Part shown: positions 3,834-50,782 of the stretch, piece by piece
How the letters are laid out: the number at the start of each line of letters is the position of its first letter
Position numbering within the stretch: position 1 is the stretch's first letter
Assembly (NCBI GenBank): GCA_022072165.1
Contig: JAJVIF010000004.1
Coordinates: 79,667 to 143,666 of the forward strand
Direction of reading: 5' to 3'
DNA length: 64,000 nucleotides
DNA from: a bacterium
Lineage (GTDB): Bacteria; JAJVIF01
The notes under the pieces: model-generated
Database searches by the model: none
What the model was told of the DNA's origin: nothing
Seen by the model: only the letters and a program-made list of their open reading frames with translations
Position numbers and translations under genes: made by a program

Positions 3834-3972
3834 CGCTCCCGAGCGCCAGGACCTTGTGGCAACGCAAGAGTTGTTTACAACCTCGCCCCCCGGATCGCCG
3901 GGGGGTGTTGCTTTTGCTGGGTGATGGCACGGCACTGCGACAGATGTCTGACACTCCCCGGAGGGCTTGGCG

Positions 3973-21477: not shown

Positions 21478-21554
<77 letters not shown>

Positions 21555-26753: not shown

Positions 26754-26780
26754 CGCCCCATTATTGCAGAAATCAACTGA

Positions 26781-28379
<1,599 letters not shown>

Positions 28380-33482: not shown

Positions 33483-34781
33483 TTAGTAGTTCCAGAAGTC
33501 GGAGTACTCGATGGCTCCAAGAGGGGTGATGAGGTGATTGTGATGCGGCAAGCCTACTCCTGGCATGGCGACGACACCCTCAAAGTCGACTGGCTGTGAC
33601 GAGCCATCATGGATCAGCGTGCCATCGTAGGTCAGATCGTCATAGAATCCGTCGTCGTCTGTGTCTTTCAGCTCCACGATCATCTCAAAGACTGGAGCGT
33701 TCGACTCCCAGGTGTCTGGCTCGGGCTCTACGAACGGATGTCCGTCGGCATAACAACAACCGACGGGTGCGATGGTCCCGGTGTTGGTCCGAATTTTCGC
33801 GTGATAGATCAGCGATGACTTGTGCTCTTCGATCGTGGCTGTCCCAAAGGTGTTGAGATAGAAGGCGTCGGACCACAGGAAGAGATCCGGGGCGGTGGTC
33901 GACGGAATCGCGGCATTGCCAAGCATGGTGGACAATCTGCCGTATTCTCTGAGCCCAAAGGCGACAGTGGTTCCGGCCAAACCGTCTGCGACTCCCTGGC
34001 GATACACCTGCTCTGCCTGAGAGTGAGGGCCCCCTTCCGCATTGAATTCCTGGATCCAGCTTTTTAGAACCTGGCCGATCTGAATCCAGTTTCCGGTATG
34101 GGGCCGGGCGATCAGGAGATCGATGTAGGTCTCTTCAAGTTTCTGCTGCAGGGCCAGATCGTAGTCAGCATACGGAAACACGGACTTATCCAGCCGACCA
34201 GACTCCACGGCGATTCGCAGAAAGTCGCCATAAACCGTGATCAGTGGCAGGATTTGGACACCATAACGCTGTCGCTTCGTGGCTTCTCCAGCGAAGGACC
34301 AGTTGTCGAACTGGGGACCCGCCACCACTGGCTTCTTCCACTTGGCGGTGTGGTCCGCTGCATCGGTGGCGACGAGCTCCAGCATAAGGTTGCCCTCGCC
34401 TAACCGCTTGTCCGCCGTGAAATCGAGGCGAAAGGCGCCAGTCTGATGGTCGAAGTAAGAATTCGGTGCGGCCTGTAACAGGTGATCCAGGTTCAACTCT
34501 ACGGACTGCTGTGTCGAGATGTTCAGCACATGCAGCTTCAGGGCATTCGGGTCGCCAGGCGAGAGCCCCGCCTGAGACTGCACTGATCCCTCGAAGAGGG
34601 TGAAGCCGTGAGGGAGAAACTCCCAGGCGCCTGGAGTGGATGTCATGATGAGTTCGATAGGACCCGTTCCTGCCAGGCGGTCGGGCGTGGGGCTGGTCTG
34701 ATTGGGTTTCCCAGCCTGACAGCCGAAGAGACTCAGGCCAGCCAGGCACAGGAGGAACCAGAGGGATGTCGTGGCCTTCAT
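33483..34781 (-). CDS. lipoprotein, function unknown
   Basis: MKATTSLWFLLCLAGLSLFGC lipobox; start overlaps upstream gene stop in a TAATG arrangement at 34781. Confidence 0.6.
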   Translation of the reverse strand: MKATTSLWFLLCLAGLSLFGCQAGKPNQTSPTPDRLAGTGPIELIMTSTPGAWEFLPHGFTLFEGSVQSQAGLSPGDPNALKLHVLNISTQQSVELNLDHLLQAAPNSYFDHQTGAFRLDFTADKRLGEGNLMLELVATDAADHTAKWKKPVVAGPQFDNWSFAGEATKRQRYGVQILPLITVYGDFLRIAVESGRLDKSVFPYADYDLALQQKLEETYIDLLIARPHTGNWIQIGQVLKSWIQEFNAEGGPHSQAEQVYRQGVADGLAGTTVAFGLREYGRLSTMLGNAAIPSTTAPDLFLWSDAFYLNTFGTATIEEHKSSLIYHAKIRTNTGTIAPVGCCYADGHPFVEPEPDTWESNAPVFEMIVELKDTDDDGFYDDLTYDGTLIHDGSSQPVDFEGVVAMPGVGLPHHNHLITPLGAIEYSDFWNY

Positions 34782-35047
34782 TAACAGATACCTCCTCTCA
34801 GCGCGACCTGTCGAGCCGCTTCCCTACAGAGGTCGTTGACTGCTGTTGCTACGCCGGAGGGGACCTGACCACCACTATTGGTGCGAATCCAGTTCATGGG
34901 ATTTTGCAGGACGGTACCGATGCTGCCAACAACCCCGTTCGCTGCTCCCCCTGGCTGTGAACTGCATCCGGCCCACAGCAATGCGAGGACGAGTACGCTC
35001 ACTACAGGCCAGCTGTCACGGGGCCGCAGCTTGGTATGCTGTTCCAT
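34781..35047 (-). CDS. small lipoprotein
   Basis: MEQHTKLRPRDSWPVVSVLVLALLWAGCSS (lipobox LWAGC), AGAGGGA RBS upstream. Confidence 0.45.
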   Translation of the reverse strand: MEQHTKLRPRDSWPVVSVLVLALLWAGCSSQPGGAANGVVGSIGTVLQNPMNWIRTNSGGQVPSGVATAVNDLCREAARQVALRGGIC

Positions 35048-35086
35048 GTTGTTCCCTCTGTAAAGGGTTAGAGTGAATGCAATCTT

Positions 35087-35106
35087 ACACACACACACAC
35101 ACACAC
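35087..35106. repeat. dinucleotide microsatellite (AC)10
   Basis: ACACACACACACACACACAC sits 40-60 nt upstream of the 35047 start codon, in the divergent intergenic region shared with korA. Confidence 0.9.
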
Positions 35107-35304
35107 GACTGCCTGCGATGAAAATCTCAAAATTTTCTCTGGAGTTCCGCACTGCCCGACTGCCGGACAGTTTTGGGTACTGAAACGCAGAATTCCGCTG
35201 AAACTAGGGTAGAGTGTGTGCTTGTGTCCCGGCACTGGTTCGCCGGGCCAAACTGGGGTGTCCTGACCCTTGGACCACCCCCGAAAGTCAGGTTCCGGAG
35301 CATC

Positions 35305-37143
35305 GTGGCCACTACCATCGAGTCCGCGTCAGCGCAGAGTGCCGGCATCAAGCTAAATGACCTGGTGATTCGCCTCGCCGGGGAAGGGGGCGAAGGCGTC
35401 GTGTCCACCGGCCGGATGCTGGGCGACGCATTTGTCCGTTGCAACCTGAAGATTTTCACGTTCCAGACCTTCCCGGCAGAAATCAAGGGTGGGACGGTGA
35501 TGTACCAGCTGCGGACCAACGCGCAGCCGATCCGTACCCAGGGCGATGTCGCGGACTGCTTCGCGGTTTTCACCCAGGAGGGGTACGACAAGTACGCCGC
35601 GCAGATGCCCTCCGACAGCTATGTCCTGTTCAATGCCGATGAGGTGAAGGGGGTCTCGGACCGCTTCACTGCGACTTATGGGGTCCCGATGACCGCCCTT
35701 GCCCGCGAGGTGGGGGATGTCATCACGAAGACGACCGTGGGTGCCGGTGCCATCGCCGCCATGCTCCACATGGATCTGTCGATCTTCGAGGACCTCCTCC
35801 GCAAGCGTTTCGCCAGCAAAGCGAAAAAGCAGATTGCCGAGGCCCAGGCGAAAGGGACCTGGCAGGAGGGGCAGGAAGCGCCCATCGTCGCGGTCAACCT
35901 TGCCGCGCTCCGGGTCGGCTATGAATTTTTCCGGAAGCTCGAGGCGGAGAGCAACGCCACGACGCCGTTCCGGATTGAGCCAATCGCCGGCGAGCAGAAG
36001 ATGATCGCCACCGGGAATCGCATGATTGCGCTCGGTGCCCTCGCCGCGGGTTGCCGCACCTACGCCGGCTACCCCATCACGCCCGCCACGGACATTATGG
36101 AAGAGCTGGCGAAGTTCATGCCGCAGTTCGGCGGCTCCGTGATGCAGGTGGAGGACGAAATTGCCGCGCTGGGGGTGGTGGTCGGGGCCTCCTACGCTGG
36201 TCAGCGGGCGTTCACCGCGACCTCCGGACCAGGTGTCAGCCTCATGATCGAGATGCTGGGGCTCGCCTCCATGCTGGAGCTCCCCATCGTGATCGTCGAT
36301 GCCATGCGGGCGGGACCCTCTACTGGGATGCCCACCAAGACCGAGCAGGGCGACCTCTACATGGCAGCCTTCGCGGGGCATGGGGATTCCCCGCGCATCG
36401 TGCTCGCGCCCCGCACGGTCACGGACTGCTTCTGGGTGATGGTGGAAGCCTTCAATCTCGCCGAGAAGTACCAGGTGCCGGTGCTGGTGCTGACTGACCA
36501 GTCGCTGGCGGCCCGCAACGAGTCCGTGGATCGTCCCGACCTCTCCCTCATCGAACTGGAGCCCCGGCTGGTGCCCACCACCGAGCAGCTGGAGCACTTC
36601 GCCCGGTACGAGATCACCGAATCCGGCGTCTCGCCCTTCGCGGTCCCCGGCACCCCCGGTGGGATGAACTTCTCTACCGGTGTGGAGCACGATGAGGGGG
36701 GCAACATCAAGCACGACCCGTGGGTGCACCGGGAAATGACCCAGAAGCGGTTCCGCAAGCTGCAGACCGCTATTGCCGCCGGCGATCTGAACAGCATCGA
36801 GCCCTATGGCGACCCGGCAGCGAAGCTGGGGATCCTCGCCTGGGGATCCAACTACGGGATCATTCAGGAAGCGGTCGACCTGGTGGCGGCGAAGGGCGTG
36901 GTGGTGGAGTTCCTCTGCCCGCGCACGCTCTTCCCGGTGGTCCGCCCGGAACTGGAGCCATTCCTCCAGAAGTACGATCAGGTCCTGGTCCCGGAGAACA
37001 ACTTCCAGGGGCAGTATCTGACCATCCTGCGGAACGAGTTCCCCGAGCTGGCCAGCAAGCTCAAGCCAGTGCATAAGTACGAAGGGCTGCCTTTTACCCC
37101 GTCGGAGATTGCCGACGCCATCATGGAAGCGGTGCAAGCATGA
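35305..37143 (+). CDS. korA: 2-oxoacid:ferredoxin oxidoreductase alpha subunit
   Basis: GTG start with GGAG RBS; KLNDLVIRLAGEGGEGVVSTG and GYPITPATDIMEEL are typical of KorA/PorA family. Confidence 0.85.
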   Translation: MATTIESASAQSAGIKLNDLVIRLAGEGGEGVVSTGRMLGDAFVRCNLKIFTFQTFPAEIKGGTVMYQLRTNAQPIRTQGDVADCFAVFTQEGYDKYAAQMPSDSYVLFNADEVKGVSDRFTATYGVPMTALAREVGDVITKTTVGAGAIAAMLHMDLSIFEDLLRKRFASKAKKQIAEAQAKGTWQEGQEAPIVAVNLAALRVGYEFFRKLEAESNATTPFRIEPIAGEQKMIATGNRMIALGALAAGCRTYAGYPITPATDIMEELAKFMPQFGGSVMQVEDEIAALGVVVGASYAGQRAFTATSGPGVSLMIEMLGLASMLELPIVIVDAMRAGPSTGMPTKTEQGDLYMAAFAGHGDSPRIVLAPRTVTDCFWVMVEAFNLAEKYQVPVLVLTDQSLAARNESVDRPDLSLIELEPRLVPTTEQLEHFARYEITESGVSPFAVPGTPGGMNFSTGVEHDEGGNIKHDPWVHREMTQKRFRKLQTAIAAGDLNSIEPYGDPAAKLGILAWGSNYGIIQEAVDLVAAKGVVVEFLCPRTLFPVVRPELEPFLQKYDQVLVPENNFQGQYLTILRNEFPELASKLKPVHKYEGLPFTPSEIADAIMEAVQA

Positions 37144-38015
37144 CAGACGTGATGACGCCAGAAGTCGTGGCCAAGAAGCCGAACGACTACAAGACCAGCA
37201 TGAAGCCGATCTGGTGCCCCGGCTGTGGGGACTTCGGTGTCCTTTCCAGCCTCTATAAGGCCATGGCGGACCTCAACATCGAGCCGCATCAGGTGGCCAC
37301 CGTCTCCGGCATCGGCTGCTCCGGTCGATTCCCCGGCTTCGTCTCCAGCTACGGCCTGCATACGGTGCATGGTCGCGCTCTCACGGTCGCGACCGGCGTG
37401 AAGGTCGGCAATCCCGACCTCCATGTCATTGCACTGGGGGGCGATGGCGATGCCTTCTCGATTGGAGGGAATCACCTGGCCCACGCCGCGCGCCGTAATC
37501 CGGACATCACTTACGTCATCATGGACAACGAAGTCTATGGGCTCACCAAGGGGCAGTATTCCCCCACCACCCATGGTGGCTGGCTCTCCAAGACGGATCC
37601 CTATGGCGAAACCGAAGGAGCGTTGAATCCGGGCGAGCTCCTTATCAGCTATGACACCGCCTGGTATGGACGGGGCTACTCCGGCAAGCCGAAGCAGCTC
37701 ACCGACCTCATGAAGGAAGCGATCCAGTTCCCCGGCTTCGCGGTGGTTCATGTCATCAGCCCCTGCACGACTTTCCGGGGCCTGAACTATCAGCATGAGT
37801 TCGCCACCAAGCTCCGGGATCTGCCCGAAGGGTACGACCCCACCAACAAGCTGGAGGCGTATCGCATGGTGCAGGATCGTGACGAGTGGTACATGGGGTG
37901 CATTTACAAGAACCCCAACAAGCCGACCCAGCAACAGCGCCTGGATCATGTGAAATCGAAGGCCACACAGGTGGAGCAGAGCCTCACCGCGATCTTCGAC
38001 TCGATGACCCATTAG
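37140..38015 (+). CDS. korB: 2-oxoacid:ferredoxin oxidoreductase beta subunit (TPP-binding)
   Basis: IWCPGCGDFGVL and GGDGDAFSIGGNHL TPP motifs; 4-bp overlap with korA. Confidence 0.9.
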   Translation: MTDVMTPEVVAKKPNDYKTSMKPIWCPGCGDFGVLSSLYKAMADLNIEPHQVATVSGIGCSGRFPGFVSSYGLHTVHGRALTVATGVKVGNPDLHVIALGGDGDAFSIGGNHLAHAARRNPDITYVIMDNEVYGLTKGQYSPTTHGGWLSKTDPYGETEGALNPGELLISYDTAWYGRGYSGKPKQLTDLMKEAIQFPGFAVVHVISPCTTFRGLNYQHEFATKLRDLPEGYDPTNKLEAYRMVQDRDEWYMGCIYKNPNKPTQQQRLDHVKSKATQVEQSLTAIFDSMTH

Positions 38016-38129
38016 CGTCTGGCATCGGCCGTTACGCAACAGCGCTCCCGGACCTCCGGGAGCGCTTTGTTTCAGGCGGCGCGATGCGGTGTGACTACAG
38101 GACGCCTGTGTCGATGGTGTAGCGGGCGG

Positions 38130-39755
38130 TTAGTAGGTGCACTCCAGCTCGCCATACCAGGGCGACCGGAGCGCCGAGGGAAGCGTCACTTTCGCCCCGA
38201 GCATGACATGGGGGTAGTACATCCGCTTTGGGAAATTCTCGGGGTTGCGTGCCTGATGGACTGTCACCACGAGAGTGTCTTCAAAGACCGCGACCCGCCA
38301 GCGGATTAGTTCGATGATCCGCTCCTGGAGCTCCTCCGGGAAGGGGACCCAGCCATGCCAGGTGAGGCTCCCGTTGCTGGAGTCGAAGAGTCCGAGTCGC
38401 AGGATGGGTTTGCCCTGATTGACGCTGGCCGGGGGAAAGATGACGACATGCAGCACCAGGAGTTCCGTATCGCTCCAGCCGACCAGGCGATACGGCGGGG
38501 TGGCGGTGATGGGCAGCTCGTTCTGGACCGCATCGATGAGTGACCGGTCCGTGATTGTGCTCGTGGACCCGGTGTCGACCCGTTCGATCTGGATACTGTG
38601 GACCTGGGCACCTTCCACGATCTTCCACATCGCCAGCTCGGTGCCCCCTTTGCGCTCTTCCAGCCAGCCCTGGGCATACGACAGCAGCTCATTCGGTATG
38701 GGCCGCGCGGTATGGGCATAGCGATGTGCCGGATAGCCGGTGGACTCGAGGCTCACGACGATGGGAGGCTGACGCAGGGGCTCGGTCCAGTGCCGATGAA
38801 AGTGCGTGGGGCCCTGGGCTTGCGTGGTCCGCTCCCTGGCGGCTTTCAGATCGATGCGGGCGGTGGGGTCGGTCAGCGCGACACCTCCTGGTACCTGCAA
38901 CGTCCCCAGCGCGCTCTCTCCGCGCATGGTCGGGCGGATGCGGAGTACGCCGGCGCGATCGCTGTGTGCCAGCCAGGTGGAAATCACCGGAGGCAGAGGA
39001 TTGCGCTGATACATGGCGTAGTCGGAGAGTTCGACGGTCACCGGGAGTGGCACCCGGGAGGTTCCGGTGCCGGTCTGGGGGTCGACCCAGGCGAACTCGG
39101 CCGGGGCGAGTCCTTCCTTCCGCTGCTGGATGGCAGCTTCGGTCTTCGGCTCCACCAGGAGTCCCAGACGGGATCCGGTGGTGGGCAATAACTCGACCCC
39201 ATGCATCACTTCTCTGGTGAGGAGGGCGGGGTCCAGCAGTACCCGGTGTTCTTCGACGAGGGTGTCAGGATTCAGGGCCAGGAGGGCTGGCGTGGTGCCC
39301 TGATCCGTCCCGATAAACCAGAGCCGTCCCTTTTGCCCGGTGCCGTGATAAGCCCAGAACTTGTCAGGGATGTGCTCAGCGTTCTTGGTGCCGTCAGTCC
39401 AGCGCTCAATGCGGACCTGATGCTTCTCCTGACCGAGGAAGTAGGGCCCATCGGGGGTCAGGATCCAGGGGGAAATCGTGAGTTGCTCGTGGCCGATTTC
39501 CCGCGATGTGGGAATCGACCAGGTGGCGTCGAGTTGCGGGCCGCCGACCGCCCAGGTAGCGGGGAGTGGTTTGGGCTGCGGGACGGGGATGCGCCACCAC
39601 CACCAGAGGGCGAGAATCGGCCCGACTGTCAGCGCCAGCGCGGCGAAGGCGCATCCTCCGCAGCAGGAGCGGGGACGTGTCGTCGCCGGGGGGCCGGGGA
39701 CGGTGCCCTGGGCAGAAAAGGGAGCGGCTGGTGGCGGGATCGAGGTACGGCTCAT
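38130..39755 (-). CDS. hypothetical membrane-anchored protein
   Basis: 541-aa ORF, N-terminal hydrophobic segment CAFAALALTVGPILALWWWW; no domain recognised. Confidence 0.5.
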   Translation of the reverse strand: MSRTSIPPPAAPFSAQGTVPGPPATTRPRSCCGGCAFAALALTVGPILALWWWWRIPVPQPKPLPATWAVGGPQLDATWSIPTSREIGHEQLTISPWILTPDGPYFLGQEKHQVRIERWTDGTKNAEHIPDKFWAYHGTGQKGRLWFIGTDQGTTPALLALNPDTLVEEHRVLLDPALLTREVMHGVELLPTTGSRLGLLVEPKTEAAIQQRKEGLAPAEFAWVDPQTGTGTSRVPLPVTVELSDYAMYQRNPLPPVISTWLAHSDRAGVLRIRPTMRGESALGTLQVPGGVALTDPTARIDLKAARERTTQAQGPTHFHRHWTEPLRQPPIVVSLESTGYPAHRYAHTARPIPNELLSYAQGWLEERKGGTELAMWKIVEGAQVHSIQIERVDTGSTSTITDRSLIDAVQNELPITATPPYRLVGWSDTELLVLHVVIFPPASVNQGKPILRLGLFDSSNGSLTWHGWVPFPEELQERIIELIRWRVAVFEDTLVVTVHQARNPENFPKRMYYPHVMLGAKVTLPSALRSPWYGELECTY

Positions 39756-39801
39756 GCGGCTCCTGCTGGTTGGTCAGAGTCCGGAGTGAGGAGAAGGCGG
39801 C

Positions 39802-40125
39802 CTACGGTGCCGCGGCAGCAGGAGGGCCACCGCCCATCATGTTTTCGCGCTGATAGACCGAGTGCCGGGGGGGACCCGCCAGGATCTCCATGCCCCAGCG
39901 CTGCGCGGCCCGGAAGGCATCGGACTGGATGAACGCCATGAATTGTTCCCGGGTCTCCCAGTTGCTGTAGATCATGTAGGAACCCTGCTGATTGACATCG
40001 ACATAGAGCCGGGTTTCCTGGTGTCCCTCCATCCCCTGCATGGCGGTGATAACGTCTTTGGTGTAGTTCTCGAAATCCGTCTCGTGGCCGGGTTTCACGT
40101 CGTAGTTAAGTCCGAAGGTGAGCAT
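39802..40125 (-). CDS. ABM-domain (antibiotic biosynthesis monooxygenase-like) protein
   Basis: About 107 aa from MLTFGLNYDVKPGHETDFENYTKDVITAMQGMEGHQETRLY, resembling ABM fold proteins. Confidence 0.55.
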   Translation of the reverse strand: MLTFGLNYDVKPGHETDFENYTKDVITAMQGMEGHQETRLYVDVNQQGSYMIYSNWETREQFMAFIQSDAFRAAQRWGMEILAGPPRHSVYQRENMMGGGPPAAAAP

Positions 40126-40212
40126 GGATAAGCCTCGTGCGTAGGGTCTCTCTCTCGTAGGGGCCGGACAAAACCGGCGGCTGAGGATAGTGCATCCTCC
40201 ACGCCGCAAATG

Positions 40213-40995: not shown

Positions 40996-41031
40996 AGCGC
41001 TGATGATACGGATGTCTGGCGGTGATGGTCG

Positions 41032-42489: not shown

Positions 42490-42563
42490 CGCCTGAGGAT
42501 AGCCGCCCGGCGGGTCAGGTGGGGCAGGCTGATGTGTGAAGGCAGCGCAGCCGCGAGGCGGCC

Positions 42564-42923
42564 TCAATAGCCGACGATCCGGACCCCGCAGAACACACAG
42601 TAGCGACGTCGCGAGGGCTGCTCTTCCCCGCACGAGGGGCAACGGGGGAGGGGCGTCCCTGCAGTGGGCGAACTCCCGTCCACCTTCTGGCCACAGCCGA
42701 CACAGAAGCAGGCCCCCTTCAGGAGCGGAGTCTGGCAGGCAGGGCAGTCGAGGCCGGAGCACTGACGAAAGACCGTTTCGCAGGCGGCACACAGTTCATC
42801 GGATTCCCGGACGCCTTCGCCACAGACTGGGCAGGGGAGCAGGGTCCCGGTGCTGCAGGCAGGACACCAGGCGGCCCCCTCGGGGATCAGCGCGCCGCAT
42901 TCCTGGCAGGTCGGGGAACTCAC
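42564..42923 (-). CDS. multi-zinc-ribbon domain protein
   Basis: Repeated CxxC pairs (CQECG, CPAC, CPVCG, CAAC, CPAC, CVGCG, CPSCG, CVFCG). Confidence 0.5.
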   Translation of the reverse strand: MSSPTCQECGALIPEGAAWCPACSTGTLLPCPVCGEGVRESDELCAACETVFRQCSGLDCPACQTPLLKGACFCVGCGQKVDGSSPTAGTPLPRCPSCGEEQPSRRRYCVFCGVRIVGY

Positions 42924-42976
42924 CAGCGGGAGGATACAGGGTTGAGACGCAAGCCCAGGCAGGTGCTGGACTCGAC

Positions 42977-43990
42977 TTACAGGTCGAGGAGTCCTGCAGG
43001 GAGCTTGCGCCAGACACCAGGCTGGTCGGTCTTGTACTGCCAGACCAGCGAGTTTTGCGAATCCAGCAGGGACTCATGGACGATCATTGCAAACCGCTGG
43101 TTCCGAAACTTCTTTCCGGCCGAAGGTTCCCCTCTGGTCAATTGTGCCTGCCGCTTGGGCGCTTCGCCCTTCTCCGATGATGGAGGGGTGGCGTACTCGA
43201 TGATGTAGTTTTCTGAGGTGGCGAACATGACCCACCGGGTATTGTTCACCTCATAGTGAAAGCGCCATTGGCCGGCCTGCGAATGCCAGACTTCCACCGG
43301 TCCGACTTCCTGCTCAATGATCTCCAGTGTCTGGGGGGGAATCCGGAGCCCGAGTTGTTTTTCCAGCCACTGCCCGCCAGGGACTTCGGACGCGGGGGCG
43401 AAAAGCAGTCCCCGGGCGATCCCGTGCAGCAGCTGGAGACCCAGTGGGTCGTGGATACTGAAGCGCAAAATGTGTGGCAGCTCCAGTTCATCCTTGGGGC
43501 GGGGACCCACATTGTGAAACCAGGTACCCTTCGTTTTGCCTTCAAACGGGGCCTCGACATACCAGAGTCCATTGGTGGACTTGTAGCAGCGCCAGCCGTG
43601 GGGTGGCATGACGTCCAGGCGGATGGGCATCAACTCCCCCTGGGCATCGAAGGGTACCAGCGGTAGCGGACTTTCCAGCTCGGGCTGACCGCCCCCGAGC
43701 CAGGCATGAATCACGTCATCCTGGTTACGGGTCGCCGTGCCGATGGCTATCGCAAACGCCTGCAACGAGTTGAAGAGACGTTGCTCCTCAGACTGATTGA
43801 GCCGCTGGGCTATGAACGCCTCCTGCTCTCGTGCTGCTTGCTGGCTTGCGGAGGCGCAACCGCAGCCCAAGATGACACTCAGCATCAGCAGGAGCACCCA
43901 ACCGGAGCCCACGTGGACTGGCAAGTTGCCTGAGCCATACGGCTGCTTCTGCCTATTCACAGCAGCTGCACAGGAAGAGTCTGTGAGCAT
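42977..43990 (-). CDS. lipoprotein, function unknown (downstream partner of Cys-rich protein 1)
   Basis: Hydrophobic segment plus lipobox WVLLLMLSVILGCGC; start uncertain (ATG 43990 or GTG 43913). Confidence 0.5.
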   Translation of the reverse strand: MLTDSSCAAAVNRQKQPYGSGNLPVHVGSGWVLLLMLSVILGCGCASASQQAAREQEAFIAQRLNQSEEQRLFNSLQAFAIAIGTATRNQDDVIHAWLGGGQPELESPLPLVPFDAQGELMPIRLDVMPPHGWRCYKSTNGLWYVEAPFEGKTKGTWFHNVGPRPKDELELPHILRFSIHDPLGLQLLHGIARGLLFAPASEVPGGQWLEKQLGLRIPPQTLEIIEQEVGPVEVWHSQAGQWRFHYEVNNTRWVMFATSENYIIEYATPPSSEKGEAPKRQAQLTRGEPSAGKKFRNQRFAMIVHESLLDSQNSLVWQYKTDQPGVWRKLPAGLLDL

Positions 43991-44495
43991 CTTTATCCTC
44001 CTCGGTGGGTTCAGGCCAGCAATGCAGGTGTTCCTGGCGGGGGCAGCAGGCGTCACAAATCTGATCGTCACCAGTCCAGATGGGCGGACTGGCCTCCTCT
44101 CTCCACGTAAAGCGTGCATCAACCCCTAGTTCCCCACACGGGATGGGTGGGAAGTTCCCAGGGTGCCCAGGATGCTCGTTCTCTATCTCCTCGTAAAGGC
44201 GCTTAAAGTCTTCACAGGTTTCCTGATTCACGCAGGCATACATAGCAGAGTAACCACCGTATTCCGCAGCGCCCCCAGAGATAGCGATGGGTTCTGAGCA
44301 GCTCGGAATCGGAAAGGTGTCACAACAGCAGATGAACTCCGAGAGTTCAAAGTCGAGCGTGGTGTAAAGCGAGATCGCGATCGGGACGCAGCACCCATCT
44401 GGCACGTTTTGCGCCTGGGAAGTCTTCGCGGGGGCTAGCTGTGTCGCGGCCAGCAGTAGCAGCAGCACTGAAAAGTGAAGGGACTTGTGTTTCAT
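43953..44495 (-). CDS. secreted cysteine-rich small protein 1
   Basis: Signal peptide MKHKSLHFSVLLLLLAATQLAPAKTSQA, AAGGA RBS, about 18 Cys including CC and CCC clusters; start overlaps upstream lipoprotein stop (ATGA). Confidence 0.5.
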   Translation of the reverse strand: MKHKSLHFSVLLLLLAATQLAPAKTSQAQNVPDGCCVPIAISLYTTLDFELSEFICCCDTFPIPSCSEPIAISGGAAEYGGYSAMYACVNQETCEDFKRLYEEIENEHPGHPGNFPPIPCGELGVDARFTWREEASPPIWTGDDQICDACCPRQEHLHCWPEPTEEDKDAHRLFLCSCCE

Positions 44496-45508
44496 CGGTT
44501 TTCATTCCTTTCTGGTGCAGACTCCAGACGTGGGACCTCGACATAATCCCACTGATGGGCGGAGAGATCTTCCCAGAGGACCATCTCCTGCAATTGCTGG
44601 GCGATGTGGGCCGACAGGCCTGACTTTCCATAAGGAATGGCAGGACGGTAGTTCAGCAACTTCTTTTTGGGATGAATCTGGAGGTCGTGCCACAAGTCAG
44701 GTATACCTGGACCTGTGAGATGGAGTGCCACTGCGGTGTTATCTGGACGTTTGTACGCCATGATCGAGGGATAGAGAGCCAGCAGGGCTTCCCAGGGCTC
44801 CTGCTGCATTTTGAGATGGAGCGCGTCGAATGCCTGCGACGGCGATTCAGGCATTTGTTTGTAGTACCAATGGTAATGAGTGATGATGCTTGCCAGACTT
44901 CCGGCCCTTCGTGCGCAGAGGTCCTCAGCATCTGGTTCGTGCTCGAAGCCCGGCTTATACTCGCCGGCCAGCGGACGCATAGGCTCATAGCCCTCCCAGC
45001 CGCCGTGAAGGGCCACCCCGAAGTGATCCTCAACCGGGTAGACCGCGATGCTCAACAGGGGCACATCCCCATGTGTCTGAACTACCGGCCAGGGCTCTCC
45101 ACTTTCAAGACAGGGCCAGTAAAGAACCTCAGACGCCAATTCGTTCCAGTTGTTTGGTGCAGTCAACCGGGCCGCTGATGGCACCGCAATTGGGCCAAAG
45201 TAGTAGTTCACCAGGGCCGAATTGACTTCCGCAAAAGTCAGACGTGCCTGGACTTTGGTGATCCCGAGTGGACCATAAGATCTGGCGACCTTCCAGAAGT
45301 CGAAGTAATCGACAGGTTTTTCCTGACGTTTGGTCGCAGTAGAATTCGCAGGCACTTGAGCCAAATCAGTTAGTTTTCCACTATCGCTGACCTGTACCGA
45401 TTTTTCGGCTGAGTTGACCCCGCTGCACCCCATCAGGTACTGGCAGGCCAAGGCAGTCATGAGAGCGACCGTGAGCACGTTCTGACGGGTATTTGTGCGC
45501 TGAGTCAT
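44492..45508 (-). CDS. lipoprotein, function unknown (downstream partner of Cys-rich protein 2)
   Basis: MTQRTNTRQNVLTVALMTALACQYLMGCSG (lipobox); begins 5 nt after the stop of the upstream Cys-rich gene. Confidence 0.55.
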   Translation of the reverse strand: MTQRTNTRQNVLTVALMTALACQYLMGCSGVNSAEKSVQVSDSGKLTDLAQVPANSTATKRQEKPVDYFDFWKVARSYGPLGITKVQARLTFAEVNSALVNYYFGPIAVPSAARLTAPNNWNELASEVLYWPCLESGEPWPVVQTHGDVPLLSIAVYPVEDHFGVALHGGWEGYEPMRPLAGEYKPGFEHEPDAEDLCARRAGSLASIITHYHWYYKQMPESPSQAFDALHLKMQQEPWEALLALYPSIMAYKRPDNTAVALHLTGPGIPDLWHDLQIHPKKKLLNYRPAIPYGKSGLSAHIAQQLQEMVLWEDLSAHQWDYVEVPRLESAPERNENR

Positions 45509-45513
45509 AGGTT

Positions 45514-46029
45514 TCAGCTCGCTTTCTTGTAAGGGCAAGGTGGCAAGTCTGTTTCACACCGCATTCGCGCTTCATGCGGGCAGAAGGGCTCATTGGGACT
45601 TTGTGGAATCGGACAGTCCACAAAAATCTGACCTGGGCATGGAGGTTGGCCTTTTTCTGCCGGCTCTATTAATGCAACAACGTTCCCATAACAGAGTTCC
45701 AGACACCAGCCTTGTCCATCCCTGATGCAGTCAGTGAAGCCTGGTGCAGCTTCAGCGCAATCACCGCAGCGGCACGCTGATCCAAAGGACTCGTTACATT
45801 TCTTGGAGCTTTGGGAAGAGATACCAATCCAGTAGGTCAGCCCGTTGGCGGCACAGTCGCAGGAGTATACTTCTTGGTCATTGCACGGTTCATCGTCTTC
45901 AGTACAAGTCAGGCAGCAATGGCCATAGGCATGAGCCTGACTGACATAACCTGCTTCCGGAGTCGTCCACAAGCTGCCGCACAGGAGCGCCAGGACGATC
46001 ACCATGAGACGTCTGATCTGCATCGTCAT
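45514..46029 (-). CDS. secreted cysteine-rich small protein 2
   Basis: Signal peptide MTMQIRRLMVIVLALLCGSLWTTPEAGYVSQAHA followed by YGHCC...; about 20 Cys. Confidence 0.5.
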   Translation of the reverse strand: MTMQIRRLMVIVLALLCGSLWTTPEAGYVSQAHAYGHCCLTCTEDDEPCNDQEVYSCDCAANGLTYWIGISSQSSKKCNESFGSACRCGDCAEAAPGFTDCIRDGQGWCLELCYGNVVALIEPAEKGQPPCPGQIFVDCPIPQSPNEPFCPHEARMRCETDLPPCPYKKAS

Positions 46030-46071
46030 CCCCCAAGAATGCTGGGGACTGCATACTAATGCACAAGGTTA

Positions 46072-46091
46072 CTCTCTCTCTCTCTCTCTCT
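46072..46091. repeat. dinucleotide microsatellite (CT)10
   Basis: CTCTCTCTCTCTCTCTCTCT sits 43-62 nt upstream of the 46029 start codon, between the M16 peptidase stop and the Cys-rich gene 2 start. Confidence 0.9.
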
Positions 46092-46136
46092 GTCAAGGCG
46101 ATGCCGGAAAATTATTGGCGATGAGCCGACACGCGG

Positions 46137-48866
46137 TTACTCCAGCGAGACGGCGGGGGTGAAGAGGTCGCCGGTCACGGCCAGCCAGGCATTGGCGGGC
46201 TGGAAGTACGTCGTCGCGACCCGGTTCGCCTCCTCCACCGTGACCCCGGCCATCCGCTGGAGGAGCTGCCAGTCGAAGTCCCAGGGGAGATCCCGGGCGA
46301 CATTGAGCGCCATCGCCTGTGATTGCGCCTGCATCCCAGCCAGCGACATCAGGGTTTGCCCCCTGCTGTAGGTGACAGCGGTTGCGAGCTCTTCGGCTGT
46401 GATGCCCTCGGTGGCGATGAGCCGAAACTCCCGCTGCAGGCCGGTGATGGCCTGCTCCCACATTTCAGGCCGTGTCCCAATCCGGGCCGACAGGATGCCG
46501 CCATCACGATACGCCTCCACCCGGGAATAGGTGCCATAGGCCAGCCCTTCCTTGCCCCGCAGCCGGTCAAACAGCCGGGAGAGCCAGCTGCCTCCCAGCA
46601 CCATGTTGACCGCCTGGATCGCCGGGAGGTCCGGGTCATGCAGGGCGACGCCGGGGAGTCCCAGCACACTCATCGTTTGGGCCTTGGCGGTCTGCTGGAC
46701 AATCCGCTGCAGGCCCGTGGCGCTCCGGGGGATAGCGGGAGAGAGCACGGTGCCGGTCTGACGTTTCCGCACCGGTAACCCTCCAAAAATGGTTTCCAGC
46801 TCAGGCTGCACAGTGGCGGGATCGATGTCACCTGTCAGGGTCAGGACTAACGTAGAGGGATCAAAGATGTGCACCGCGTGATCCAGCAGATGCTCCCGGG
46901 TCAGAGCACTGACCGCCGCAGGGCGTCCCAACGGCGGACGGCCGTACGCCACGTCCTGGCCCCACATCGCCAGCGTCAGCTGATCATGTGTGGTGTTGTA
47001 CGACTCATCGGCCCGGGCGGTGATCTCCGCGAGAAGGATGTCGCGGGCGACTGCCACTTCCTCTTCGGGGAAGGTGGCCTGACTGATGAGATCGGCGATC
47101 AACGGCAATGCTGTGGCGAGGTCATCGGCGGCATAGAGTCCGCTCAGCGAGGTGGTGTCGTAGCTGACACTCACTTCGAAGCGTCCGCCGAGGTGGTCGA
47201 TGAGTCCCAGGATGTCATCGGCAGAACGGGTGGTCGTCCCCTTGGTCAGGGTCCGCTCCAGCAGCGCGCCGAGTCCGTTGGTCTCCCAGGACTCCAGATC
47301 GAGTCCCTGCGGCGCGGCGAGAGTGAGCCCCACCGTCCCGGTCCCAAGGACCGGCTTCACCAGCACCCGCATCCCGTTCCGGAGCGTCAGCGTGGTGGGT
47401 GCCGCCCCCGCTCCGGCGGCCTGACTGGCGGGATAGATCGGCTGTGTGGATGTCCCCAGCCGGCCGATGTCGCCAGGTCGCTCCAGGGGAGCGGCTGAGG
47501 GGTCCAGCAATGACCAGTTCGGGGTCAGGGGAGCCGCACCAGTCTCGGCGGTGGCGAGGCCGAGGGTGATGTGCGCGGCGGGGAGGAAATGCTGCGCCGC
47601 CCACTGGACATCCGCAGCGTTGACCCCCGCCAGGCGAGCGGCATAGTCTTCGAAGAAGAGGGGAGACCCGGTGGCGTTGATGTAATAGCCGAGGGTGTAG
47701 GCCTGACTCTGGACATCCTCCCCCAGGAACAAATGCTGGAGCATCAGCTGTCGGCGCGCGCGGTCAAGCTCGCTCGCGGTGGGGCCCTGCTCCTTGAGCT
47801 GCCGAATGACCCTGAAGATTTCCTCGGTAGCAGCGAGGGTCTGCGCGGGGTCCGCCATCTCCGCGCTGAGCCAAAAGGCGGACTGCGTGATCAGTTCTTG
47901 TGTGCTGGTAGAGATGTCGGAGACGAGCCCGAGCTCGTCGCGCAGACGTCGCACCAGCCGACTTGCATCCCCCTGTCCGAGAATCGCGGCCAGCACCTGC
48001 AGAGCATAGGTTTCATCGGCACGGGCGGCGGTTGTGGGCCAGACAGCAGCGATGTGATTGGTGGCGTAGTCCCGGACTCCCACCAGCGACTGCGGCGCAG
48101 TCTGGGAGTAGGGAGTCGTGCCGGGGTCCGGGGCGATTTCAGTCGGCTGCCAGGCACTGAACTCTTCGGTGAGGATCTGCAGCGCATCCTCCGCGTTAAA
48201 GTCACCGACGGCAATGGTGAATGCGTTGTTGGGACCATAAAAGCGACGGTAGTACTCCCGCATCTGCTCATTGGTCTGGGCATCGAGGGTCGGGGCATCG
48301 CCGATGACCGGATGCCGATAGCCAGCGTGGGCCATGGCTGCCGGGAGCACCAGATCGCCCAGGAACCAGCCGGGGTTGTCGAGTCCCTGCCGGAGCTCTT
48401 CCTTCACGACTTCGCGCTCCCGTCCGAACTCGCTGTCCAGGAGCACGGGCTGGCTCACGAGGAGGGCGGTCATATGCGCGATTTCCCGGAGCTTGTCGGC
48501 GGGTCCGACATGGAAGTAGTTGGTGTTGTCCTGATCCGTGGAGGCGTTGTTGTCGATGGCGTTCTGAAACAGGATGCGGTTGAAGTCATCCAGGGGCATC
48601 CCGACTGATCCATCAAAGAGCATGTGCTCGAGGAAATGGGAGATGCCGGCATCGGCTGGTTGCTCGTTGCGGGCCCCGACCCGAAACCAGGTATTCACGA
48701 CCGCCACTGGCGCCGCGTGGTTCTCGACAATGAGCAATTGCATCCCATTGGGAAGGGTCGCCATGAGCATCCCCCCGGGAGTGCGGACCGGTTCGGCAGC
48801 GGGGGCAGGGGTGGCAACGGTGAGGGACATCAGGACTCCGGTGAGCAGCAGCACGAGGGCGCGCAT
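46137..48866 (-). CDS. secreted tandem M16-family zinc peptidase (pitrilysin/insulinase-like)
   Basis: Signal peptide MRALVLLLTGVLMSLTVATPAPAAEP; inverzincin motif HFLEHMLFDGS (HxxEH); about 900 aa consistent with two M16 units; GGAGG RBS. Confidence 0.85.
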   Translation of the reverse strand: MRALVLLLTGVLMSLTVATPAPAAEPVRTPGGMLMATLPNGMQLLIVENHAAPVAVVNTWFRVGARNEQPADAGISHFLEHMLFDGSVGMPLDDFNRILFQNAIDNNASTDQDNTNYFHVGPADKLREIAHMTALLVSQPVLLDSEFGREREVVKEELRQGLDNPGWFLGDLVLPAAMAHAGYRHPVIGDAPTLDAQTNEQMREYYRRFYGPNNAFTIAVGDFNAEDALQILTEEFSAWQPTEIAPDPGTTPYSQTAPQSLVGVRDYATNHIAAVWPTTAARADETYALQVLAAILGQGDASRLVRRLRDELGLVSDISTSTQELITQSAFWLSAEMADPAQTLAATEEIFRVIRQLKEQGPTASELDRARRQLMLQHLFLGEDVQSQAYTLGYYINATGSPLFFEDYAARLAGVNAADVQWAAQHFLPAAHITLGLATAETGAAPLTPNWSLLDPSAAPLERPGDIGRLGTSTQPIYPASQAAGAGAAPTTLTLRNGMRVLVKPVLGTGTVGLTLAAPQGLDLESWETNGLGALLERTLTKGTTTRSADDILGLIDHLGGRFEVSVSYDTTSLSGLYAADDLATALPLIADLISQATFPEEEVAVARDILLAEITARADESYNTTHDQLTLAMWGQDVAYGRPPLGRPAAVSALTREHLLDHAVHIFDPSTLVLTLTGDIDPATVQPELETIFGGLPVRKRQTGTVLSPAIPRSATGLQRIVQQTAKAQTMSVLGLPGVALHDPDLPAIQAVNMVLGGSWLSRLFDRLRGKEGLAYGTYSRVEAYRDGGILSARIGTRPEMWEQAITGLQREFRLIATEGITAEELATAVTYSRGQTLMSLAGMQAQSQAMALNVARDLPWDFDWQLLQRMAGVTVEEANRVATTYFQPANAWLAVTGDLFTPAVSLE

Positions 48867-49012
48867 GGGGCCTCCAGGCATACCTCCCGGGCTGGTGGGT
48901 CCGGGGAGGGTGAGAAAGGCGAAGTGCCGGGGGGAAGGATACGCGAGCCGCCCGGGGGGCCGGGCGGCGAAGGCAGGCTTACATCAAAGTCGGTCGGTCG
49001 TGCCGACGAGCC

Positions 49013-50074
49013 TCAGAGCCCTGGGAGGATGGCATCGGCGGCGGGGGTCAGAGTGAAGGCCGCCAGGGGCTGCCAGGCGAGACCCTCCACGGCATCGGCC
49101 CGGAGTCCCTGGGTGACGAACTCTCCCGGTCCCGACACCGTGACCTGCACGATGCCAGCTTCCTCGAGGCCGCTGGGGTAACGGAGCAGGAAGCGCAGAT
49201 GTGTCCCGGCAGGTTCACTAAAGAGGGCGAACCCGCTGGCGGTGCCATCGGTGAACGCCGCGCTGTCGATGGGGTCCAGATTGACCGGACCCAGCGCGGT
49301 TCCCCAGCCGATCTCTTCCATGCTTGCTGGCATCTGTCCGGTGTTAGCCAGGGTCGCGCTGGCGGCGTGGAGCCACTGGCTCAGCGCTTCTGCGACCCGG
49401 GCATCCTGCAGGGGACGGGCGGTCTGGCGGTACCCCTCCAGGATCTGCTGCCGGACTGCAGGCCGGCTGCTCTCGCGCTCGGCGGCCAGCATCGTGTCGA
49501 GGCTGTCAGGTGTCAGACTCTCCAGCGCTGCGATCTTCGGATTGACGAGCGGCGCAGGCGGCGCGGACTGACCCATACGGACGGGCTCCAGATGGAGGAG
49601 TCCATCGGTTTCGCCATAGACCGGGAGGTGTCCGGCAGGGGGCTGATTTGCCACGAGGGTCAAAGTCCACTGCGCGGCCTGCGAGCGCCAGGCTTCCGGG
49701 GTCACGGTGCCGGTGAGCGGGTCGGTGGTCGCGGCAGCGAGGATGCCCGTTGCGGGGTCGGCCAAAGTCCAGGCGAAGACAAAGGGGGCCAGGCCCTCCG
49801 GAGTCGCGGGCCAGCTCCCCTGGACCTGCGAGGCCCGGATGGCTCCCTGCGAGATGCCATGAAAGGTCAGGGGCAACAGAGAGAACCAGGTCGCAGAGTC
49901 CCGTTGCTGCAGACGAGTCGTGCGGGTCGCGAGCCAGGCCTCGACTCCCTCCACCTGCTGACTCCGGGGCTGATCGTTGACCGCAGTTGCGGTCTCCTTG
50001 GGGGGCGCGGTGATACACGCCGCGATGAACAATAGCGGCAACGGCACCAGCCAGCACAACGTACGGGTAGTCAT
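49013..50074 (-). CDS. lipoprotein, function unknown (downstream partner of Cys-rich protein 3)
   Basis: MTTRTLCWLVPLPLLFIAAC lipobox; strong AAGGAG RBS. Confidence 0.55.
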   Translation of the reverse strand: MTTRTLCWLVPLPLLFIAACITAPPKETATAVNDQPRSQQVEGVEAWLATRTTRLQQRDSATWFSLLPLTFHGISQGAIRASQVQGSWPATPEGLAPFVFAWTLADPATGILAAATTDPLTGTVTPEAWRSQAAQWTLTLVANQPPAGHLPVYGETDGLLHLEPVRMGQSAPPAPLVNPKIAALESLTPDSLDTMLAAERESSRPAVRQQILEGYRQTARPLQDARVAEALSQWLHAASATLANTGQMPASMEEIGWGTALGPVNLDPIDSAAFTDGTASGFALFSEPAGTHLRFLLRYPSGLEEAGIVQVTVSGPGEFVTQGLRADAVEGLAWQPLAAFTLTPAADAILPGL

Positions 50075-50165
50075 GGGATTCTCCTTGTGAGTTCTCACTT
50101 TTGTGGGACTTTTCCTCAGTGCGATCGGCTAAGAAAGACTGCTAGCATGGGCTGGTGGGCGCAGG

Positions 50166-50543
50166 CTAACAGCACTCTGCGGACTCCTCCTCACCACAGA
50201 CGAAAGGCTCTCCAATCGGGTACGACGGATAGCCGGGTGGGAAGCAAGTGCAGCTTCCTGCGCAGGTATAAGAAGTGTAGGTCTTGTACTCTCGCCAGTG
50301 TTGACCTGTGCATGGGATGCAGTTTAGGCAAGCACAATTTGCGGGAGGGCAGCTCAGGAATGCAGCTTTCTGAATATTGTAAAAGTGTGTACAAGGTGAG
50401 AAGCCCGACCCGTTCCAGCACCAGCAAACCTCAAAGCCGGTGCCCCCAAGAGAGATCTCCATCTCGCAGCAGTCTGCAAAAGTAACTGATGGGAGCAAAA
50501 GCACGCTCCAGCCTAGTACAGCAGAAAGGAAAAACCTTAACAC
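50166..50543 (-). CDS. secreted cysteine-rich small protein 3
   Basis: GTG start at 50543 with GGAGGA RBS (track ORF extends to a TTG at 50585); signal peptide ending VTFA then DCC...; ends ...EEESAECC. Confidence 0.5.
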   Translation of the reverse strand: MLRFFLSAVLGWSVLLLPSVTFADCCEMEISLGGTGFEVCWCWNGSGFSPCTHFYNIQKAAFLSCPPANCACLNCIPCTGQHWREYKTYTSYTCAGSCTCFPPGYPSYPIGEPFVCGEEESAECC

Positions 50544-50782
50544 GGGTTTCCTCCAGGCTGGGATTTGGGTGATCGGACGCGACAAAATCTACCCTGCTTC
50601 CTCATTGCAGTCAATGAGCTTTTCTAAAAAATGCGTCCATACTGAACGAGTTGCTGCAGCAATGCCGCCAGCGCTGCATCGCTGGTAGTATCAATCGGCA
50701 AACGGCGGTGGGTCTGAAGAGCAGTTTCCCGCATCGGGCAGTATCAGCTAAAGAGGGGAGCGAAGGCCGGTACAATCAGCAG

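Follow-up and report, generated by a model that had tools for sequence, protein, structure and literature searches.

Promoter-spacer homopolymers are known from Neisseria porA and opc and from Bordetella fim, and the phase- and antigen-variable Vlp and Vsa lipoproteins of Mycoplasma have repeat-containing promoters and intragenic tandem repeats. Polymorphic toxin-immunity and bacteriocin-immunity pairs couple the gene of a small secreted protein to a downstream gene for an envelope protein. Work by Daubin and Ochman in 2004 reportedly found ORFan genes to be AT-rich. In Haemophilus influenzae, a (TA)9-11 tract between hifA and hifB alters the spacing of the -10 and -35 elements and leads to fimbrial phase variation, and such sites are called contingency loci (van Ham 1993, as summarised in PMC2651432). 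Lineages are reported to differ in the repeat unit at this place (TA or poly-A). Core genomes have a higher coding G+C content (GC) than accessory genomes (Bohlin et al. 2017, PMC5303225). The present analysis concerns a 64-kb stretch of contig JAJVIF010000004.1 (assembly GCA_022072165.1; hereafter the window) from an uncultured bacterium, which contains four low-GC islands, numbered 1 to 4 along the window. Islands 1 and 2 begin downstream of dinucleotide repeats, and the repeat of island 2 appears to form the spacer of a promoter.

The reading favored here, with a probability of about 0.6, is that the islands hold clade-restricted, sporadically expressed envelope genes at a lower GC equilibrium, that one of them is an accessory and recombinogenic cassette (island 2), and that at least one operon, and probably two, would be switched by a microsatellite. 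All genes of islands 1-3 lie on the minus strand and all their products are exported. A sequence-only reading of the window had taken these three loci for surface-protein loci, and this is borne out by a signal peptide or lipobox in every open reading frame (ORF) of the three islands. The genes placed under the putative promoters are thus predicted to encode surface or envelope proteins. The islands share a layout in which the gene of a small exported cysteine-rich (Cys-rich) protein is followed by a lipoprotein gene on the same strand, and exported Cys-rich ORFs are found in the window only within islands 1-3. The neighboring genes have conserved functions and encode a HAD phosphatase, a 2-oxoacid:ferredoxin oxidoreductase, a photolyase, an M16 peptidase and GrpE.

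The operons at all three loci are confined to a single uncultured bacterial clade, which is diderm, as the window encodes TamB and MlaD. Their proteins have no match in Pfam, NCBIfam, PADLOC or the PDB sequences, and hence none to a toxin or immunity domain in these collections. Homolog clusters are few in collections of 5.8 or 1.8 billion proteins: three for the 432-aa lipoprotein of island 1 (in 5.8 billion proteins), two for the 338-aa lipoprotein of island 2 (one identical to NCBI GEEBNDBF_02605 and one other at 67 %) and three for the 180-aa Cys-rich protein of island 2 (members at 93, 48 and 38 % identity in 1.8 billion representatives). These clusters all come from metagenomic relatives that share the flanking genes or the cassette. 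BLAST and profile-profile comparisons detected no relatedness among the island proteins and therefore lent no support to an origin of the cassette by internal duplication or to a single family of Cys-rich proteins.

Dinucleotide repeats upstream of islands 1 and 2

Relatives of the window were recovered by exact and homology look-ups. Sequences of the same population, at least 99.3 % identical, were found in many SRA assemblies. Sister lineages with a synonymous divergence (dS) of ∼0.25-0.3 are L013/L014, L022 and L030, more distant lineages are L015, L016 and L031, and the outgroup L018 was obtained from a scan of JGI metagenomes. L030 is about as far from the window as L022 (M16 dS ∼0.28, 92 % nucleotide identity). 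A scan of the GTDB species representatives with the M16 gene as anchor gave only matches of 22-29 % identity and no usable relative.

Only two dinucleotide repeats of at least six units occur in the 64 kb, (TG)9 at positions 35088-35105 and (CT)10 at 46072-46091, and at distances of 35-62 nt one precedes the first gene of island 1 and the other that of island 2. The putative island 2 promoter (46066-46096, minus strand) is composed of a -35 element, TTGACA (46091-46096), a 19-nt spacer of nothing but GA repeats (46072-46090) and a -10-like hexamer, TAACCT (46066-46071), which is followed by GGGGGA and by the ATG of the first gene at 46029. Read on the minus strand, the repeat comprises 10 AG units in the window, 10 in the additional lineage L029 and 11 in L022, and the orthologous cassette of L031 carries (AC)7 instead. 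The corresponding spacers are 19 nt of (GA)n in front of TAACCT in the window, 19 nt of (GA)n in front of TATCCT in L029, 21 nt of (GA)n in front of TATCCT in L022 and 15 nt of (AC)7C in front of TAGAAT in L031. Each of the four spacers departs from the 17-nt optimum by an integral number of repeat units. With no more than 18 copies of TTGACA on the two strands of the window, abutment of this hexamer on the repeat in both of two distant cassettes is very unlikely to be due to chance.

At island 1, (TG)9 adjoins a -10-like TAAGAT (35082-35087; promoter region 35082-35105, minus strand) ∼35 nt upstream of the ATG at 35047. Four lineages have the repeat in this place, with 9, 12, 11 and 11 units, and in them it directly abuts TA[A/C]GAT inside an otherwise conserved regulatory region. 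A plain sigma-70 promoter was considered at this site and set aside, as the nearest -35-like sequence, GGCA, is 22-28 nt from the -10-like hexamer.

In these features, island 2 appears to have the structure of a promoter-spacer contingency locus, and we infer from the layout that its operon is phase-variable; the repeat of island 1 probably works in a similar way. Slipped-strand gain or loss of repeat units would shift the island 2 spacer in 2-nt steps around the 17-nt optimum, and the change in spacing would turn transcription on or off, or tune it, in a heritable and reversible manner. The weakest step of this scheme is the last one, in which the products would be variable envelope proteins and diversification of their expression and alleles would be directed against phage, predators or competitors. 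As at hifA/hifB, a simple-sequence repeat would fill the space between the -35 and -10 elements of a promoter predicted to drive genes for surface structures, lineages differ in repeat number by steps that shift the spacer around 17 nt, and they differ in the repeat unit. Unlike hifA/hifB, the locus belongs to an uncultured, unclassified environmental or metagenomic bacterium of ∼64 % GC, has (GA)n and (AC)n in place of (TA)n or homopolymers, precedes four uncharacterised gene families and is a candidate switch.

Several observations weigh against the favored reading. The -10-like TAACCT is weak, with three of six matches to a consensus that may not be that of the host (T1, A2 and T6 present), and an automated promoter scan does not call the island 2 promoter. 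Island 1 has no recognisable -35 element at a workable distance, and island 3 has no promoter repeat. Repeat length is invariant within the window population, in which four further contigs carry (TG)9 and one further contig carries (AG)10, and variation in repeat number is seen between lineages only, in consensus contigs. AlphaFold2 models of the 432-aa and 338-aa lipoproteins (mean predicted local distance difference test, pLDDT, of 46 and 33, respectively) are too poor to indicate function. The reference for composition is the 64-kb window rather than the whole genome, and lineage relationships rest on single-gene comparisons of short metagenomic contigs.

The uniform repeat length within the population, the weakness of the -10 elements and the lack of a usable -35 element at island 1 are also what would be expected if the microsatellites were neutral or incidental, with ordinary regulation of the operons and drift in repeat number. 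This explanation is unlikely. It would leave to coincidence that the only long dinucleotide repeats of the window both stand upstream of island operons, that the position of (TG)n is kept in four lineages whose synonymous sites are saturated, and that a perfect TTGACA adjoins (GA)n and (AC)n in lineages whose cassette proteins are 27-48 % identical.

Low GC and its inheritance

The window has a GC of 0.636, with 0.644 outside the four islands and 0.565 inside. In a 1-kb sliding profile, GC falls below 0.60 at 33.0-35.9, 43.0-46.6, 49.6-51.4 and 52.0-54.0 kb, and a weaker dip is seen at 25.6-26.9 kb. The sequence-only reading had placed three lipoprotein or Cys-rich loci below the background, at 33.5-35.1 kb (island 1), 43.9-46.1 kb (island 2) and 50.1-50.6 kb (island 3), and their GC is 0.577 (z = -4.6), 0.552 (z = -7.5) and 0.535 (z = -4.6), respectively. 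Not one of the ∼4,700-5,500 windows of equal length outside the islands is as GC-poor, and the regional z values of all islands lie between -4.5 and -8.1. The low-GC patches are thereby confirmed, with some changes of detail. Two of the three 60-nt hand counts hold (0.50 and 0.667), and the third (44501-44560), given as 0.57, comes to 0.533. The GC value of the reference gene at 12 kb is right, and the gene, described as housekeeping, encodes a TamB-like protein. The span 33483-50543 contains three separate dips and is not a single island, as its GC is 0.624 and normal background lies between the dips. Two dips were missing from the original list, at 52365-53485 (GC 0.569) and, more weakly, at 25605-26789 (GC 0.599). 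The proposed check by sliding-window GC and GC at third codon positions (GC3), carried out within the window, gave significant deviations for the islands. The proposed tetranucleotide comparison, also made against the window, set islands 2 and 3 clearly apart and islands 1 and 4 only marginally. The low-GC observation as first written is correct and, taken alone, ordinary.

Genes were defined with a self-trained codon model and refined by the gene calls of public assemblies, and nine island ORFs were compared with 45 other genes. The GC of the island ORFs deviates by z = -1.9 to -5.1 per gene. Their GC3 is 0.54-0.72, in comparison with 0.766 ± 0.036 in the 45 other genes (z down to -6.2). Island and other ORFs differ in Mann-Whitney tests with p = 3e-6 for GC and likewise for GC3. 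The oligonucleotide signature is strongly atypical in islands 2 and 3 (Karlin delta* 108 and 218, reached by none of the null segments). In islands 1 and 4, the tetranucleotide correlation r lies within the lowest 2 % and delta* is not significant.

The deficit has two components of similar size. Of the nine island ORFs, eight have an expected GC that is 0.025-0.056 lower on account of amino-acid composition alone, the exception being a truncated 88-aa ORF of island 1 (+0.025), and synonymous codon choice contributes -0.020 to -0.073. The synonymous share is greatest in the hypervariable or never-annotated ORFs and least in the 432-aa and 337-aa genes. Codons for Cys, Asn, Tyr, Ile and Lys are AT-rich, and on this basis the low GC could be seen as a mere by-product of the amino-acid needs of secreted proteins, Cys-rich proteins and lipoproteins. 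Such an account is distinctly unlikely. The synonymous part equals or exceeds the amino-acid part, and observed GC3 falls short of the expected value by 0.05 to 0.20, up to 4.8 standard deviations. Cytoplasmic genes, a toxin-antitoxin (TA)-like pair and a Fic gene, share the deficit. Three other exported proteins of the window (a 961-aa lipoprotein, a 361-aa lipoprotein and the secreted M16 peptidase) have a normal GC of 0.65-0.68, and so export or lipoprotein status alone does not predict low GC.

Island 1 contains the gene of the 432-aa lipoprotein (33483-34781, minus strand; lipobox LSLFGC; GC 0.578, GC3 0.70). The order of POR genes, small ORF, 432-aa gene and HAD phosphatase gene is kept in every relative in which the island was found (L013-L016), and the GC dip is kept with it (0.55-0.59 versus 0.62-0.68). 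In comparison with L013, the 432-aa gene has a dS of 0.27 and a ratio of nonsynonymous to synonymous divergence (dN/dS) of 0.19, and its neighbors have similar values (HAD phosphatase, 0.26 and 0.23; 961-aa lipoprotein, 0.28 and 0.13). The GC of the 432-aa gene is still 0.57-0.59 in L015 and L016, where dS is saturated, and island 1 is therefore not a recent transfer awaiting amelioration. In the AlphaFold2 model, residues ∼41-155 of the 432-aa protein form an Ig-like β-sandwich and the rest is of low confidence. Foldseek searches with the lipoprotein models gave no more than Ig-like matches without significance, all to a single N-terminal domain.

The small ORF of island 1, which is divergent, encodes an 88-aa lipoprotein (34781-35047, minus strand; GC3 0.60) and overlaps, in a TAATG, the start of the 432-aa gene. 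A full-length, 142-aa form with the core CWACV.DWCNG.P.PCN..C..LCP is present in L013 (1116-1544), L015 (361-789) and L016. In the window population, this Cys-rich core is missing through an in-frame deletion of 162 bp (54 codons), the borders of which share the microhomology ATGA. The 88-aa ORF is thus a truncated form of the 142-aa Cys-rich lipoprotein.

Island 3 consists of a gene for a 125-aa secreted Cys-rich protein (50166-50543, minus strand; GC 0.527) in a 708-nt 'intergenic' gap, upstream of the co-oriented 361-aa lipoprotein gene of normal GC. A GGAGGA sequence is placed 5 nt before its GTG start codon (50543). The signal peptide ends in ..VTFA|DCC, and the mature protein of 102 residues contains 16 cysteines. 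This ORF is absent from a collection of 15 billion proteins, from the annotation of the source metagenome-assembled genome (MAG) and from the gene calls of every assembly. In the L030 ortholog, 6 of the 102 mature residues are changed and all 16 cysteines are kept, third codon positions account for 24 of the 31 nucleotide changes (p = 1e-6), and dN/dS is 0.08 at a dS of 0.53, somewhat above the flanks. On account of this third-position bias, low dN/dS and cysteine conservation, the ORF is read as a real, constrained and unannotated gene, whose atypical composition probably defeats gene finders. The signal peptide and promoter region have diverged from L030 far more than the mature coding part, and the region upstream of the gene is essentially unalignable. 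A promoter-like TTGACT-17-TAGATT (50586-50614, minus strand) was found upstream of the gene by a consensus scan only.

The failure of three Cys-rich ORFs and the 88-aa ORF in the self-trained codon model, the silence of all gene finders at island 3 and the 162-bp deletion in island 1 could suggest that the low-GC stretches are decaying or non-coding DNA with spurious ORFs or pseudogenes. This is highly improbable, and it is refuted for every gene with a sequenced relative. Island genes have dN/dS values of 0.08-0.25, and their cysteines are invariant across proteins of 36-48 % identity. Third-position bias (island 3), intact signal peptides and Shine-Dalgarno sites, and the in-frame nature of the deletion point in the same direction.

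Island 4 (52365-53485, plus strand; GC 0.569) contains two co-oriented genes with a 4-nt overlap (52365-53063 and 53060-53485), which encode a DUF433-like protein of 232 aa and a PIN_10/DUF5615 protein of 141 aa. The 141-aa protein scores above the Pfam cut-offs for PIN_10 (28.7 bits, cut-off 26.2) and DUF5615 (25.4 bits, cut-off 23.8). The DUF433 match covers only residues 167-222 of 232 and scores 19.3 bits, below the cut-off of 23.6, and NCBIfam and PADLOC gave no match, so the pair is best described as 'TA-like' only. The pair is kept in L030 with the same low GC, a dS of 0.22-0.34 and a dN/dS of 0.06-0.18. The weaker fifth dip corresponds to a Fic/DOC gene (25605-26789, minus strand; GC 0.599, z = -2.0, GC3 0.69), which matches Pfam Fic and Fic_N and the PADLOC model of the SoFic anti-phage defence system (E = 1.6e-105).

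Islands 1, 3 and 4 are syntenic, vertically inherited and under purifying selection, with dS equal to or somewhat above that of the flanks and dN/dS of 0.06-0.19. These values bear on the possibility that all islands came in recently from donors of lower GC and have yet to ameliorate. The composition is atypical, as is the oligonucleotide signature of islands 2 and 3; island 2 is truly an insertion that is absent from a sister lineage and the outgroup; and a TA pair, SoFic and orphan surface proteins are typical of accessory genomes. Even so, recent transfer is unlikely as a common explanation, and for islands 1, 3 and 4 it is refuted at the depth sampled. These three islands are syntenic in every relative examined, their dS equals that of the flanks (islands 1 and 4) or slightly exceeds it (island 3), and their GC and GC3 deficits are unchanged in the relatives, for island 1 even at a saturated dS at which amelioration should be complete. 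The cassette of island 2 is equally GC-poor relative to its host in L031, where its proteins are 27-48 % identical to those of the window. No donor was found in 5.8 billion proteins, and no integrase, tRNA or flanking repeats accompany the islands.

Because the orthologous copies in sister and distant lineages keep their low GC, the deficit is a stable equilibrium property of these genes and not the fading trace of a recent transfer. In the favored reading, the island genes would be sporadically expressed, often recombining and outside the core, so that selection (or biased gene conversion) would push them towards GC only weakly. Under such weak pressure, AT-biased mutation would set a lower equilibrium, as it may in accessory relative to core genes. 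The pattern resembles the core-accessory difference in that lineage-restricted or dispensable genes are lower in GC and weaker in codon bias than their conserved neighbors. It goes beyond that difference in that the deficit was tracked in orthologs and holds steady over divergence at the level of speciation and, for island 1, at saturation. What is new here is that the deficit is locus-specific, stable through deep divergence and present also in genes under strong purifying selection.

The island 2 cassette

Island 2 is an insert of ∼3.2 kb (42939-46136, minus strand; GC 0.566, z = -8.1) between the stop codon of the M16 gene (46137-46139) and the start region of a zinc-ribbon gene. Its four genes, all on the minus strand, encode in order a 171-aa secreted Cys-rich protein (gene 1, 45514-46029; GC 0.537, GC3 0.54), a 338-aa lipoprotein (gene 2, 44492-45508; lipobox YLMGC; GC 0.554, GC3 0.61), a 180-aa secreted Cys-rich protein (gene 3, 43953-44495), whose start overlaps gene 2 in an ATGA, and a 337-aa lipoprotein or membrane-anchored protein (gene 4, 42977-43990; VILGC). 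The length of the 337-aa protein was taken from gene calls in SRA assemblies.

All four genes are present in L022. In L030, the M16 stop codon is followed after only 8 nt (tgggaccc) by GGTATCCTCCCGC..GTG of the zinc-ribbon gene, and the outgroup L018 likewise lacks the cassette, with the zinc-ribbon and photolyase genes directly after M16. Given a sister lineage and an outgroup without the cassette, and a clean junction, gain by insertion into the 8-nt spacer is favored over precise loss, by parsimony only. No flanking repeats and no insertion scar were found at the borders of island 2, no integrase or mobility domain was found in any island ORF, and the only tRNA gene in the window is located at 21478. 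A donor outside the clade was likewise missing from the 5.8 billion proteins. In L031, the same four genes occur in the same order and with the same overlap of genes 2 and 3 next to different flanking genes, and their GC is 5-10 points below that of the flanks. Since the cassette is intact at another location there and is again GC-poor, it is interpreted as an old, coherent unit able to change location, with an intrinsically low GC.

Island 2 resembles classical genomic islands in its atypical composition, patchy distribution and sharp junction. It differs from them in that it is only 3.2 kb long, confined to the clade and without an integrase, a tRNA target, direct repeats or mobility genes. 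Within the depth of sampling, islands 1, 3 and 4 show no patchiness. The loci lack both the mobility functions and the identifiable donor that characterise such islands. The sequence-only reading had suggested that its loci are accessory, possibly horizontally acquired or fast-evolving. The first part of this description fits island 2, absent from L030 and L018, and fails for the syntenic islands 1, 3 and 4, whose dS is flank-like or somewhat higher. Divergence is seen in a 1.3-kb segment of island 2 and in the small ORF of island 1, and the 432-aa, 180-aa and 125-aa genes evolve at ordinary rates.

The divergent segment (44592-45911, minus strand) comprises the mature part of the 171-aa protein and most of the 338-aa gene. 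Relative to L022, nucleotide identity within it ranges from 0.40 to 0.92, with most 60-nt blocks at 0.48-0.87. Identity is mostly 0.93-1.00 outside, and the borders are sharp. At the protein level, identity to L022 is 75 % for the 171-aa protein and 67 % for the 338-aa lipoprotein, as opposed to 96.5 % for the flank. The N-terminal two-thirds of the 338-aa lipoprotein are variable and its C-terminus is nearly identical. The dS values are 0.78 for the 171-aa gene and 1.04 for the 338-aa gene, in comparison with 0.23 for M16, 0.26 for the 180-aa gene and 0.06 for the 337-aa gene. The 337-aa protein is 91 % identical, with an unusually low dS, and the 180-aa gene has a dN/dS of 0.13. In the segment, dS is raised 3-4.5-fold over the flank and dN/dS is ∼0.25. 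This joint rise of synonymous and nonsynonymous divergence indicates a deeply divergent allele that was probably brought in or kept by recombination, and not simply a faster clock. L029 combines coding alleles of the window type with a promoter of the L022 type.

The Cys-rich proteins keep every cysteine, both from allele to allele and in L031, and vary in the intervening loops. The 171-aa protein has 17 cysteines that are invariant down to 42 % identity, and the 180-aa protein has 15 invariant cysteines along with the motifs GNFPP.PC and DQIC..CC. Identity to the L031 orthologs is 32 % for the 338-aa lipoprotein and 27-30 % for the 337-aa protein.

The cassette shares with Mycoplasma Vlp/Vsa its lipoprotein genes, a putative promoter that contains a repeat, and highly divergent alleles that are exchanged or vary at a high rate. 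It has no sequence relationship to these systems and no intragenic tandem repeats, it belongs to a diderm, and its lipoproteins are paired with Cys-rich secreted proteins. A likeness to toxin-immunity and bacteriocin-immunity pairs lies in the translational coupling and in the divergence of the 171-aa/338-aa pair as one allelic block. Unlike in such pairs, each would-be 'immunity' lipoprotein is twice as large as its secreted partner, and no secretion-system or lysis gene is nearby. A more far-reaching proposal, which we hold to be doubtful, is that the cassette and the analogous pairs of islands 1 and 3 represent an undescribed class of envelope module, in which a disulfide-rich secreted protein and a cognate lipoprotein would coevolve, be expressed stochastically through a microsatellite spacer and be diversified by the exchange of alleles among lineages. 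The two partners may then act as toxin and immunity protein or as a ligand and an anchor or shield against phage.

Further observations were made around the cassette. A 119-aa double-zinc-ribbon gene (42564-42923, minus strand) lies between island 2 and the photolyase gene. Read as its longest ORF, the photolyase has 586 aa and overlaps the zinc-ribbon gene; assemblies call a protein of 485 aa. Judged by the count of locus tags, the source MAG appears to be without a call for the zinc-ribbon or the 337-aa gene and without a call for one of the 171-aa, M16 and 361-aa genes. Assemblies of several samples break at 44466, 44613, 45608 and 46156. These breaks were considered as a sign of repeat-length heterogeneity and were left unused, as nearby single-nucleotide polymorphisms (SNPs) between co-occurring strains explain them equally well. 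Tight SNP clusters, mostly at third positions, are found at 46287-46976, 51310-51460 and 59873-60028, the densest of them at the 3' end of M16, beside island 2. They separate contigs of different samples that are otherwise at least 99.9 % identical, and they look like short imported recombination tracts. By these clustered tracts, recombination is frequent in the window population.

Other features of the window and implications

Other features of the window include a possible pair of distant paralogs, the 361-aa lipoprotein (49013-50098, minus strand) and a 541-aa membrane protein (38130-39755, minus strand), which are 25 % identical over 166 aa (E = 3e-4). Both are of normal GC and have no Pfam family. 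A 92-aa ORF (3967-4245, plus strand) of low GC (0.575, z = -3.0), with a good coding score and no Pfam match, is located just upstream of the gene for a 1063-aa UvrD-helicase/RNase T-exonuclease fusion (4331-7522). Two similar G/C hairpins occur at 8095-8115 (CCCCC-GCAAGC-G10) and 28634-28657 (C8-GCTTGC-G10), the former at the end of a tandem repeat of 31-33 nt (7997-8107). They may be terminators or similar to repetitive extragenic palindromes (REP-like), and their long G tracts could be mutable. Homopolymers unusual for coding regions, C8 at 32983-32990 in the HAD phosphatase gene and G8 at 58316-58323 in a ComM/Mg-chelatase-like gene, could be frameshift-prone.

Low GC is insufficient for calling horizontal transfer, as one and the same signal in this window spans vertically inherited genes that are strongly constrained by purifying selection, an insertion, a TA-like pair and a defence gene, and only comparison with relatives separates these classes of low-GC gene. 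The island 3 gene exposes a gap in annotation, being conserved and yet uncalled in the source MAG and in any SRA assembly. Beyond the low-GC patches, the comparison adds a mosaic cassette with four new exported families, a conserved candidate promoter with a microsatellite spacer, a low GC that persists in genes of vertical descent and one conserved, unannotated gene. The four uncharacterised protein families carry a clear co-variation signal and are suited to structural and interaction work. The design of the promoter spacer suggests that contingency-locus regulation, a strategy best known from host-adapted pathogens, extends to uncultured lineages. If the envelope-module proposal were true, the window would hold a contingency system with four new protein families in an uncultured lineage of non-pathogens.

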